6,252 nucleotides of DNA from a virus (IMGVR_UViG_2778261453_000008); one strand, 5' to 3'. Positions 2,876-5,343 are shown, counted from the stretch's first letter. Notes: generated by a model not told the origin, from the sequence alone. Program-made: numbers and translations.

Positions 2876-3301
2876 TTAGTGCATCACCACAGCATTCCCT
2901 GCAGGGCCGCCGCGATTCATCTGGTCATACAAAACAACCGCTGACGCAACAAAATCATCGACATCCTTCACCAGCCGATCCCTCCGTTCGACGATCTCAC
3001 GGTAATATTCAGAACTGTGGCTGCGCATACGGGCCACCAGCAAAGGCGGCATCGCCTTTTCGATTGCCGGTAACAGAGCCTGCATTTTTTCAACAGCATC
3101 AGGGGTGTCTTTATCCAGCCAACGGAAAATTTTCTGGGTATTACGGGCCAGGGCTTCCGGATGGCTGTCGTCATACAGTTCCGGGAACGTCATTCCCAGT
3201 TCGAAATACGCTTTGGTAATTTTCGCAGCCGGTATTTTTTCGCCGTCCGGATGCGCCCAGGCATTCATCGCCATGCGGATGTGTTCATGCTTGATTTTCA
3301 T
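2876..3301 (-). CDS. ydaT: YdaT-like protein (Rac-type, toxic when derepressed)
   Basis: 141-aa ORF starting MKIKHEHI..., which matches my recollection of YdaT in length and N-terminus. ATG at 3301..3299 has an AGGAG SD (plus 3309..3313 reverse-complemented). It overlaps the end of the upstream ydaS-like gene by 17 nt. Confidence 0.8.
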   Translation of the reverse strand: MKIKHEHIRMAMNAWAHPDGEKIPAAKITKAYFELGMTFPELYDDSHPEALARNTQKIFRWLDKDTPDAVEKMQALLPAIEKAMPPLLVARMRSHSSEYYREIVERRDRLVKDVDDFVASAVVLYDQMNRGGPAGNAVVMH

Positions 3302-3566
3302 GAATCAAGCTCCTAGTAAGTGGTTGTGTTAACGTTTTGGTATCTTCCAGCTCGGGCCAAATATTCATCCAATCAAAAGGCCTTAGTTGCTGACGTGTAA
3401 CTTCACCATTACTGGCTCGCTCAATAAGGACACATAACGATGCCCCTAACATTTGACCTTTACTCAATGCCTTTCTTAGATAACCGATGCTAGTACCACA
3501 CTCACATGCAAACATACGCTGTTCATCTGACGAAAGAGAATTGAGAAATATTCTTAATTCTTCCAT
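3285..3566 (-). CDS. ydaS: YdaS-like Cro/CI-type HTH protein (Cro analogue of Rac-type prophages)
   Basis: 93-aa ORF with a C-terminal segment (...LCVLIERASNGEVTRQQLRPFDW...) typical of the YdaS family. ATG at 3566..3564 has an AAGGAG SD 5 nt upstream. It is divergent from the repressor gene and first in the replication operon. Confidence 0.8.
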   Translation of the reverse strand: MEELRIFLNSLSSDEQRMFACECGTSIGYLRKALSKGQMLGASLCVLIERASNGEVTRQQLRPFDWMNIWPELEDTKTLTQPLTRSLIHENQA

Positions 3567-3666
3567 AGCTACTCCTTAGTAAACACAGCAAAGGATACCT
3601 ACAGGTAAACAAAAGTCAATACCCTTGGGTTGTTTACCTTGCGGTAATCGCATCTATTATTTACCT
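3567..3666. promoter_or_regulatory. Divergent promoter/operator region between the ydaS-like and repressor genes
   Basis: Two palindromic sites of form (A/T)TACC-N4-GGTAA: O1 at 3595..3608 (ATACCtacaGGTAA) and O2 at 3634..3647 (TTACCttgcGGTAA), plus a half-site TTACC at 3661..3665 abutting the repressor ATG. Candidate minus-strand promoter for ydaS: -35 TTGACT (plus 3614..3619 reverse-complemented), 16-nt spacer, -10 TATCCT (plus 3592..3597 reverse-complemented), overlapping O1. Confidence 0.55.
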
Positions 3667-4086
3667 ATGGACAAATATGAATTTAGACGACAACAACTCA
3701 TCAAAATTCGTGATGAGAAATGCGATGGTAAAGCGGTTAACGTGGCCAGAAAGATCGGTCGCGAGCCTTCTTATGTATCAAGAATGTTGTACCCAGAGGG
3801 GAAAAAAGGAAAAAAACGGATCGCTGATGATATGGTGGAGATTATAGAAGAGTCCTTTGGGTTACCCCGGGGATGGATGGATGGTATCGTTTCATCATCA
3901 ACGAACACAGCCTCCAATTATGAAACAAGGGTTCTAACGCCACGACAACGTATTTTTTTAGATCTCTTAGACGAACTGCCAGAAAGTGAAGCGGATAACT
4001 TATTAAAAACTCTTGAAGAGAAAAAACAGTATTACAATATGATCTACGAAGAAATCCGTAAAAAGAAAGCACAAAACGCATCATAA
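3667..4086 (+). CDS. Prophage immunity repressor, RacR/DicA-like (N-terminal HTH, C-terminal ELPESE-type domain)
   Basis: 139-aa ORF from ATG 3667 (MDKYEFRRQQLIKIRDEK...KAVNVARKIGREPSYVSRM...). The C-terminal ...LDELPESEADNLLKTLEE... resembles DicA/RacR-type repressors. It is divergent from the cro-like ydaS and AT-rich. The track ORF begins at an upstream TTG (3625) with no SD, so ATG 3667 is preferred. Confidence 0.8.
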   Translation: MDKYEFRRQQLIKIRDEKCDGKAVNVARKIGREPSYVSRMLYPEGKKGKKRIADDMVEIIEESFGLPRGWMDGIVSSSTNTASNYETRVLTPRQRIFLDLLDELPESEADNLLKTLEEKKQYYNMIYEEIRKKKAQNAS

Positions 4087-4120: not shown

Positions 4121-4168
4121 CAAAAAAAAATTACCCGTGGGTATTTACTTTTTGAATACCCACGGGTA
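4121..4168 (-). terminator. Rho-independent terminator hairpin, canonical on the minus strand (possibly bidirectional)
   Basis: Perfect 14-bp inverted repeat, tacccgtgggtatt (4132..4145) and aatacccacgggta (4155..4168), with a 9-nt loop. Plus-strand A9 at 4122..4130 gives a U9 tract right after the stem on the minus strand. On the plus strand the stem is followed only by tccttcctttc, so it is weaker for the repressor transcript. Confidence 0.6.
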
Positions 4169-4354
4169 TCCTTCCTTTCATACCAACCCACCCCGTCCCA
4201 CAGAACGCAGGGCAATACCTAGAGTTACCCGGCAGTGGTCAGGGGTTAAGTAGCCAGCCCGAGGCGTATGAACATGACGGCGGGAACACTTTATATAACA
4301 GCGCAGCAGGTTTTTAGTTCCGCTACCCCGGCGTTAAGGGGAAATGAGGTCAAC

Positions 4355-4893: not shown

Positions 4894-5343
4894 TTTATTC
4901 ACGGGTGAGATAGAGTGCGTGCGCCGGACACGGGTGAGCATCCGGCACTGACAGTTTACTGAAAGGATATTTCCCTGAAAAGTCAGACCATAACGCGAAA
5001 GCGTACGGCGAGGTAGCTGGTTCATAGATAGCCTGTCGTTAAATTTTGACCGTGCGCTTCCGGTTGTGGCAATCCGCGAAATGGCGCGGCGGTAAGTATG
5101 GCGGGGTTATTCCTTCCCCGTTGAGGACACCGGGTTGTCAGGTTGACCATACGCTTAAGTGACAACCACGCTGCAACGCCCTCTGTTATCAATTTTCTGG
5201 TGACGTTTGGCGGTATCAGTTCTACTCCGTGACTGCTCTGCCGCCCTTTTTAAAGTGAATTTTGTGATGCGGTGAATGCGGCTAAGCGCACGCGGAACAG
5301 TTAAAACCAAAAACAGTGTTATGGGTGGGTTCTCTGTATCCGG

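Follow-up and report, generated by a model that had tools for sequence, protein, structure and literature searches.

A predicted leaderless repressor mRNA and its conserved promoter-operator geometry in the immunity region of an Escherichia coli lambdoid prophage

Background

The promoter from which bacteriophage lambda maintains cI expression in the lysogen, pRM, reads TAGATT-TAACGT-ATG: a -10 hexamer, six nucleotides and then the start codon. Leaderless repressor genes are also found in the prophages of Escherichia coli. Only five leaderless mRNAs were detected in E. coli K-12 by dRNA-seq (Romero et al., PMC4681348), and three of these, dicA, racR and ymfK, encode the maintenance repressors of the prophages Qin (DicA), Rac (RacR) and e14 (YmfK). 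For racR, primer extension has shown that promoter PracR3 gives a leaderless transcript; further promoters exist upstream, but the leaderless one is the strongest (Wisniewska et al., PMC9638921).

The closest described system is PaaR2 of CP-933P (Jurenas et al. 2021, PMC8630535). By 5' RACE, transcription from its promoter PRM933P starts at the A of the paaR2 ATG, and N-terminal sequencing of the protein gave MQKKE, in agreement with mass spectrometry (PMC8630535). PaaR2 footprints cover the 97-bp intergenic region, which contains operators with the consensus GTTTAGTAA, arranged as four 18-bp palindromes; at low levels PaaR2 activates PRM and at high levels it represses it (PMC8630535). CP-933P also carries a YdaT-activated promoter, PRE933P (PMC8630535).

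The leaderless arrangement is therefore the norm for the maintenance repressor genes of prophages. Since it has been published for dicA, racR, ymfK and paaR2 (PMC4681348, PMC9638921, PMC8630535), finding it again in a related immunity region is to be expected rather than surprising. Here we describe such a region, in which a repressor gene annotated as 'hypothetical protein' is predicted to be transcribed from the first base of its own start codon.

Results

Gene content of the window

The DNA analysed (6,252 nucleotides from the viral sequence IMGVR_UViG_2778261453_000008, here called the window) corresponds to the region of immunity and early genes in a lambdoid prophage of E. coli. The minus strand includes a DUF1627 gene, a DnaC/IstB-like ATPase and a replication organiser (ORF list, Pfam and PHROG), a YdaT-type (CII-like) gene at 2876-3301 and a YdaS-type (Cro-like) gene at 3285-3566 (Pfam YdaS, 8.9e-6; phrog_35). 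The last of these has a clear Shine-Dalgarno (SD) sequence, AAGGAG, at 3572-3577 on the minus strand, with an anti-SD energy of -8.6 kcal/mol. Facing it on the plus strand is a gene for a protein of 139 amino acids at 3667-4086, identified in the ORF list, by PGAP and by phrog_5736 ('transcriptional regulator'), which it matches from end to end (4.7e-70). It is followed on the same strand by a DUF1391/ydfA-like gene and by the DicF RNA (5195-5246). DicF was the sole match in the Rfam scan, and lies downstream; the regulatory region itself matches no RNA family.

Judged from its sequence and surroundings, the 139-aa gene is, in our reading, the CI-analogue repressor of the prophage. PGAP places its start at ATG 3667 but labels the product 'hypothetical protein'. 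Of 5426 complete E. coli genomes, 822 carry an 801-bp core of the module at 95-99% identity, among them O157:H7, CFT073 and E2348/69. A literature search for studies of this repressor gene found none, and a search of the EHEC dRNA-seq and leaderless-mRNA literature (PMC7547250, Sakai, without its supplementary tables) yielded no 5' end for it.

The repressor promoter and start codon

A -10 hexamer, TATTAT, is present on the plus strand at 3655-3660 (sequence and promoter scan), as the original prediction had stated. Between it and the ATG at 3667-3669 there are six bases, TTACCT, which put a T at -1 and an A at +1. Since A3667 is the seventh base after the -10, it occupies the canonical +1 position, and on this spacing, together with the conservation of Met1, it is the predicted transcription start. 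The corresponding -35 hexamer, TTTACC at 3633-3638 on the plus strand, was found by the promoter scan and overlaps the left half-site region of operator O3 (see below). It matches the consensus at four positions of six, so that its earlier description as weak is fair; TTTACC-16-TATTAT as a whole matches at 9 of 12.

When one kilobase was scanned, only two matches were returned, and these lie back to back within the 100-bp intergenic space. Two sites per kb is nevertheless what shuffled sequence gives (1.9 +/- 1.5, calculated from the window alone), so the motif by itself proves nothing. Its significance comes from the placement of the -10, which recurs in the 36 non-redundant loci described in the next section.

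The 20 nucleotides preceding ATG 3667, atcgcatctattatttacct, include no purine-rich SD. The energy of the anti-SD duplex is +1.9 kcal/mol, whereas 36 other annotated genes, from five related prophage and phage loci, have a median of -6.5 and none lies above -2.7. For this comparison annotated starts were used; the starts picked automatically for the divergent genes were spurious TTG codons inside operators. The only other genes without an SD in the five loci are paaR2 (-0.9), dicA (+0.3) and the cI gene of phage mEp043 (-0.9). In the predicted mRNA, the first 9 nucleotides are unpaired and the 5' structure is unremarkable (z=-0.75).

The original prediction had proposed a pRM-like promoter with its +1 at the A of the ATG and no SD before it. 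The missing SD is borne out by the duplex energies, and the promoter is supported by the conserved spacing, the SD absence and the PaaR2 precedent. On these grounds we consider it likely that the maintenance mRNA of the repressor is leaderless, beginning with the A of ATG 3667.

Comparison across loci

Loci encoding the same N-terminal domain were collected in a scan of one genome per species. This yielded 43 loci, from Enterobacterales, Aeromonas, Xanthomonas, Stenotrophomonas, Neisseria, Burkholderiales, Nitrosomonas and others, of which 36 were left after dropping upstream regions that were at least 85% identical. When these are aligned on the start codon, which is ATG in all 36, the usual layout is CC-N4-GGTAA, TCAATACC-N4-GG, ATTTACC-N4-GGTAA, a -10-like hexamer, 6-7 nucleotides and ATG. 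TTTACC lies 34-37 nucleotides 5' of the ATG in 27 of the 36 loci (34 nucleotides in nine of them and 35 in 14). This is the distance predicted from a spacer of 16-17 bp and a discriminator of six nucleotides, provided that +1 is the A of the ATG.

The -10 hexamer shows the same regularity. Summed over the 36 loci, the -10 PWM score at gaps of 6/7 nucleotides from the ATG is 123, compared with -49 +/- 17 in shuffles (z=10; none of 5000 shuffles reaches 123), and the pattern NANNNT occurs at a gap of 6 or 7 in 24 loci where 5.9 are expected; both the shuffle and the binomial statistics are overstated, because the loci are related by descent and were treated as independent. Among real positions gaps 6/7 give the only strong peak. 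Other positive sums are limited to the overlapping gap pairs and to a weak peak at gaps 16-18, beside the O3 half-site. Twelve of the 36 loci do not have the canonical A as second base of a -10 at the 6/7 spacing, and seven of these have hexamers of the TnnAAT type. The six discriminator bases are only 27% identical between pairs of loci, compared with 89% for the first 15 coding nucleotides.

The layout is not universal. It differs in a few distant members (L022, L034, L036, L039, L043 and L044), and in one of these, from Orbus (L034), the -10 is absent and a GGGGGG SD is found instead, 4 nucleotides from the ATG. Some other relatives have an SD-like AGGA or GGAGG just 5' of the -10, which would be carried by read-through RNA only. 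To the eye, the -10/ATG spacing pattern is plain in the alignment, overstated statistics notwithstanding.

Over shorter distances, TTTACC is invariant among the E. coli variants and mEp043. Variation between E. coli strains falls in the N4 centres of the operators and in a few bases of the spacer and of the pR -10; no strain differs in the operator half-sites or in either hexamer of the repressor promoter. Over the whole set of loci, from Gamma- and Betaproteobacteria, the geometry of promoter, operators and ATG is unusually deeply conserved.

Operators and the divergent promoter

The intergenic region contains three putative operators of the form TACC-N4-GGTA. O1 (TACCTACAGGTA, 3596-3607) is an exact match and covers the spacer and -10 of the cro-side promoter; O2 (TACCCTTGGGTT, 3620-3631) has one mismatch and abuts both -35 hexamers; O3 (TACCTTGCGGTA, 3635-3646) is again exact and overlaps both the -35 hexamer of the repressor promoter and the spacer that follows it. 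The cro-side promoter is pR-like, TTGACT (3619-3614)-16-TATCCT (3597-3592), on the minus strand at 3592-3619 (promoter scan), and serves the cro-like/ydaT operon. The TTGAC beside O2 (tcaatacc on the plus strand) is kept in nearly all loci. With up to one mismatch allowed, the operator motif occurs nine times in the window, compared with 1.4 expected, and its exact matches cluster in two regulatory regions. Its half-sites are kept while the N4 centre varies, both among E. coli strains and in distant loci.

The second regulatory region (4132-4172, plus strand) lies after the repressor gene and is probably OL/pL-like, a function suggested by its sequence. It includes two putative palindromic operators, at 4132-4143 and 4157-4168, both exact matches to TACC-N4-GGTA, which together form a terminator-like hairpin, and a rightward pL-like promoter on the plus strand, TTTACT-16-TATCCT (4145-4172), which was recognised by eye and which, with 8 of 12 matches, falls below the scan threshold.

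Between centres, O1 and O2 are 24 bp apart and O2 and O3 are 15 bp apart. The centre of O2 is at -41.5 from A3667, and O3 spans -32 to -21 of the repressor promoter. This geometry, together with the activation by PaaR2 of its own PRM at low level, makes O2 a candidate activating site, comparable to OR2 of lambda, and O3 a candidate site of negative autoregulation, comparable to OR3. As the O2-O3 distance is 15 bp here and 23 bp in lambda, the details of autoregulation may differ. A possible fourth operator over the start codon (TACCTATGGACA, 3662-3673) was rejected on account of its two mismatches and its lack of conservation in mEp043.

The repressor protein

Homologue searches identify the repressor as a mosaic. 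Over residues 1-75 it shares 70-85% identity with the N-terminal domain of repressors of 221-242 amino acids that carry a Peptidase_S24 domain (PF00717), from Salmonella, Pantoea, Klebsiella, Edwardsiella, Yersinia and the lambdoid phage mEp043. Residues 84-136, a helical domain with the pattern LTxxQ...LPExE, match the NCBIfam DicA model NF007257 (E=2.5e-5). In this match only the C-terminal third is aligned and the score is 24.1 bits, where the curated cutoff is 101, so the full-length model is not matched and the protein is not DicA itself. BLASTP gives E=1e-7 to DicA, with 33% identity in the C-terminal 46 amino acids, and E=9e-9 to PaaR2, with 23% identity over 90 amino acids (residues 32-121). 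The repressor is thus a distant homologue of PaaR2, and its C-terminal domain can be described as DicA/PaaR2-like.

Searches of Pfam, of NCBIfam at full length and of PDB sequences returned no family for the N-terminal domain, and Pfam gave no match to an HTH model. Matches to ADAR Z-alpha (E~0.08) were dismissed as chance. An AF2 model (pLDDT 85.7) consists of an HTH bundle, with four helices in residues 3-63 at pLDDT above 90, a disordered linker (residues 76-87) and a long C-terminal helical hairpin; the N-terminal domain thus models as an XRE/lambda-like HTH DNA-binding fold. In Foldseek the best PDB matches, all with weak E-values, are HTH proteins of the XRE type. Among them are Rep of Salmonella phage SPC32H (5D50, E=1e-3), a repressor controlled by an antirepressor, as well as C proteins and HigA; the N-terminal domain of lambda cI (1LLI) is found at rank 48.

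The original prediction had placed the repressor in a family unrelated to lambda cI. Pfam does find no S24 peptidase domain, but the claim is overstated, because the DNA-binding domain is common to S24 repressors of the cI type and the tail to DicA and PaaR2. Since the S24 domain is absent, RecA-mediated autocleavage is not expected, and induction via an antirepressor is plausible.

Alternative explanations

Could translation begin further upstream? The window ORF is open back to an in-frame TTG at 3625, and a start there, or at another upstream codon, would lengthen the protein (by 14 residues from the TTG) and place TATTAT inside the coding sequence. This codon, however, lies inside operator O2 and has no SD, and both PGAP and the PHROG profile begin at ATG 3667. 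Conservation between homologues also starts exactly at Met1, which is invariant in 29 of them, and the first residues, M1-D-K-Y-E, are invariant or nearly so. In 18 of the 36 loci there is an in-frame stop 1-9 codons 5' of the ATG (at -1 in L003 and at -2 in L020, for example). The N-terminal extensions found in databases (MMSD-, MLMS-, MFC- and MVNDVKIAS-) are short, mutually unrelated and not conserved, and some, such as MMSD- in Pantoea, begin at an ATG within the -10 box or an operator. The upstream start, which the original prediction had named as the result that would overturn it, is effectively refuted by the stops and by conservation that is bounded by Met1, and we give it almost no credence. 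It is scarcely more probable that the prophage is cryptic and decayed and its likeness to pRM a coincidence, with the repressor silent or transcribed from elsewhere. Promoter-like matches do occur at chance frequency in this AT-rich region, and decay does occur, as frameshifted repressor copies in some E. coli (P0013, P0015, P0016 and P0019) indicate. Against this, the module is intact and 95-99% conserved in the 822 genomes already mentioned, variation spares its promoter hexamers and half-sites and is found in the operator centres, and the same architecture is found in the plaque-forming lambdoid phage mEp043 and in distant taxa.

The most probable of the alternatives, though we regard it as unlikely, is that most of the repressor comes from a leadered transcript starting well upstream and that TATTAT is incidental. 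Candidate origins are a YdaT-activated promoter of the pRE type near the ydaS/ydaT junction, or a promoter inside the cro-like gene, and translation could then proceed without an SD, for example with the aid of ribosomal protein S1 on an A/U-rich leader. CP-933P, which hardly differs from the window in ydaT and in the junction DNA, has the YdaT-activated PRE933P (PMC8630535), and a leadered establishment transcript is therefore likely here also; the additional upstream promoters of racR (PMC9638921) and the SD-like elements that some relatives carry 5' of the -10, confined to read-through RNA, point in the same direction. What such a transcript leaves unexplained is the fixed -10 pattern and the fixed distance from -35 to ATG amid surrounding bases that are randomised. 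In addition, the PRM transcript of PaaR2 is leaderless by 5' RACE (PMC8630535) and the leaderless promoter of racR is its strongest (PMC9638921). Most likely the two kinds of transcript are complementary, with the leadered one serving establishment and the leaderless one maintenance, rather than the first replacing the second.

Proposed mechanism

If the maintenance mRNA is leaderless, regulation in the lysogen might proceed as follows. RNA polymerase would bind at TTTACC (3633), a 16-bp spacer and TATTAT (3655-3660) and start at A3667. With AUG as its first codon and without a ribosome-binding site, the mRNA would depend on leaderless initiation, in parallel with lambda cI from pRM and PaaR2 from PRM933P. 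This promoter and a stronger, divergent pR-like promoter would share one 100-bp region with three operators between them. Repressor bound at O1, inside pR, would repress the lytic genes; with O1 and O2 occupied, the cro-side promoter would be shut and polymerase would be helped at the weak TTTACC/TATTAT promoter, with O2 as the likely activating site. Once in excess, the repressor would also occupy O3 and curb its own promoter. During establishment, the leadered mRNA would probably be supplied by a YdaT-dependent read-through transcript of the pRE type. The geometry of O1, O2 and O3 fits the logic of OR1, OR2 and OR3 in lambda, and we infer both operator occupancy and autoactivation from that analogy.

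Discussion

Significance for annotation and immunity

The results leave the current picture unchanged, and their interest lies mainly in annotation and in the deep conservation of the geometry. Hundreds of E. coli genomes, O157:H7, CFT073 and E2348/69 among them, carry this repressor under the label 'hypothetical protein'. Once it is recognised as a CI analogue with a leaderless mRNA and an immunity type of its own, the annotation of its start codon is settled; in relatives, gene callers introduce spurious N-terminal extensions that begin inside the -10 box. The map of operators and promoters will be useful in considering prophage maintenance and cross-immunity in pathogenic strains. It also provides a deep comparative data point for the rule that translation of maintenance repressors in the lambdoid group proceeds from mRNAs without a leader.

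A broader interpretation can be put forward only tentatively, and we think it rather less probable than not. The operators, a promoter with an operator half-site as its -35, the ATG of the leaderless mRNA and the ~75 codons for the DNA-binding domain with which the gene begins may constitute one ancient, selectively maintained immunity cassette that travels across the Gamma- and Betaproteobacteria and has been recombined onto alternative C-terminal domains: either an S24 peptidase (SOS-cleavable) or a DicA/PaaR2-like coiled coil (presumably controlled by an antirepressor). In some members, the SD-like element 5' of the -10 might provide a ribosome-binding site on establishment transcripts only, giving two modes of translation from one start codon.

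Comparison with known systems

PaaR2, from the cryptic prophage CP-933P of E. coli O157:H7, is likewise a short CI analogue without a peptidase domain, encoded opposite a YdaS/YdaT operon. Its intergenic region is 97 bp, compared with ~100 bp here, with back-to-back promoters in both, and the geometry is identical: GATAAT-taccac-ATG in CP-933P and TATTAT-ttacct-ATG in the window. The ydaT gene and backbone DNA of CP-933P are near-identical to the window up to ~3308, where the two diverge into different immunity cassettes. Immunity specificity differs, with 18-bp palindromes in CP-933P and TACC-N4-GGTA here, and the ydaS-type cro gene of CP-933P is unrelated to that of the window at the DNA level. 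CP-933P also has a paaA2-parE2 toxin-antitoxin pair, whereas the repressor gene of the window is followed by no such pair.

The likeness to lambda is one of organisation. Both have divergent pR and pRM promoters, a tripartite operator and a weak -35; in both, the centres of O1 and O2 are 24 bp apart, that of O2 falls close to -42 in the repressor promoter, the repressor gene lacks an SD, and OL/pL is found after the repressor gene in the same reading direction. The components are different. Lambda cI has 237 amino acids and an S24 autocleavage domain, whereas the repressor here has 139 and no such domain, and the two have no detectable sequence similarity beyond the weak HTH fold match to 1LLI. 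Unlike those of lambda, the operators of the window have 12-bp cores with TACC/GGTA half-sites, the -35 is embedded in O3, and the O2-O3 distance is shorter.

With Qin, the window shares the downstream order of a ydfA-like DUF1391 gene, the DicF RNA and dicB. DicA, however, has a different N-terminal DNA-binding domain and different operators, and there is no clean -10 at six nucleotides from the ATG upstream of dicA, unlike in the window.

The DNA-binding domain recurs in mEp043 cI, a phage on whose immunity region a literature search found nothing, and in S24 repressors of the 'LexA family' from prophages of Salmonella, Pantoea, Klebsiella and Edwardsiella. These have not only the domain in common with the window but also the operator motif, the TTTACC -35 and the spacing from -10 to ATG. 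They differ at the other end of the protein: their C-terminal domain is a Peptidase_S24, in proteins of 221-242 amino acids that are presumably SOS-cleavable on that account, whereas the repressor described here ends in a helical C-terminus resembling those of DicA and PaaR2.

Repressor domains and a probable immunity-cassette exchange

Compared with homologous repressor proteins from the database search (P0031-P0112), the repressor (3667-4086) is a mosaic of domains. Residues 1-75, the DNA-binding domain, are common (70-85% identity) to repressors of the S24-peptidase type, including cI of the lambdoid phage mEp043, while its C-terminus resembles those of DicA and PaaR2. With a common DNA-binding domain and differing C-termini, the same operator specificity would therefore exist in both cleavable and non-cleavable versions.

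At the DNA level, a sharp recombination breakpoint separates the window from CP-933P, the E. coli O157:H7 prophage encoding PaaR2, at window position approximately 3300-3310 (1600-1640 in the CP-933P comparison, L048). The two share ydaT and its left-hand flanking DNA at approximately 99% identity, whereas the cro-like gene, the operators and the repressor show no DNA-level relationship. To judge from sequence, this breakpoint at the 3' end of ydaS looks like a textbook-type immunity-cassette swap.

Repressor start codon and annotation of homologues

The sequence TTATTTACCT (3657-3666) is a repeat of TTGTTTACCT (3630-3639). Within 3657-3673, this repeat places a sequence resembling a TACC half-site, TACCTATGGACA, across the repressor start codon. 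All four of the further E. coli strains in the alignment carry it unchanged; the aligned mEp043 sequence lacks it.

In the distant homologous locus from Orbus sasakiae (L034, 1480-1500), the -10 at the conserved spacing has been lost and a canonical GGGGGG Shine-Dalgarno (SD) sequence is found in its place. Several other loci (L003, L005, L008 and L033) carry AGGA, GAGG or GGAGG just 5' of the -10, at -17 to -12 (approximately 12-13 nt) from the ATG; this SD-like element would be present in read-through transcripts only.

Many homologues (proteins P0035, P0040, P0065, P0087 and P0090; loci L012, L007 and others, 1-30 nt upstream of position 1501) have been given short, non-conserved N-terminal extensions by gene callers. 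In the two homologues where the origin was traced, the extension starts at an ATG within the -10 box in Pantoea (TATGAT) and within the O3 half-site in Klebsiella (ATGGTA). This looks like systematic mis-annotation, apparently because an SD is missing.

Some E. coli copies (P0013, P0015, P0016 and P0019) encode products of 135-136 aa and are apparently frameshifted, decayed repressor genes. The frame switch is seen in at least one, P0016, the single copy aligned: it begins in the overlapping +1 frame (window ORF 3677-3847) and returns to the repressor frame near GGGAAAAAAGGAAAAAAACGG runs. A-runs occur in the window at approximately 3800-3816.

Region 3' of the repressor gene and the early-left operon

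Two candidate operators, both perfect palindromes, are located at 4132-4143 (TACCCGTGGGTA) and 4157-4168 (TACCCACGGGTA), with a spacing of 25 bp. Paired, they form a terminator-like hairpin with a 16-bp stem, followed by a T-rich tail, directly 3' of the repressor gene. A rightward pL-like promoter (TTTACT-16-TATCCT) lies at 4145-4172. OL, pL and the repressor terminator may be one stretch of DNA (4132-4172).

The DicF small RNA is encoded at 5195-5246 on the + strand (Rfam RF00039, 72 bits), and the early-left operon is therefore like that of Qin, the K-12 prophage encoding DicA: a ydfA-like gene is followed by DicF and, in related strains, by dicB.
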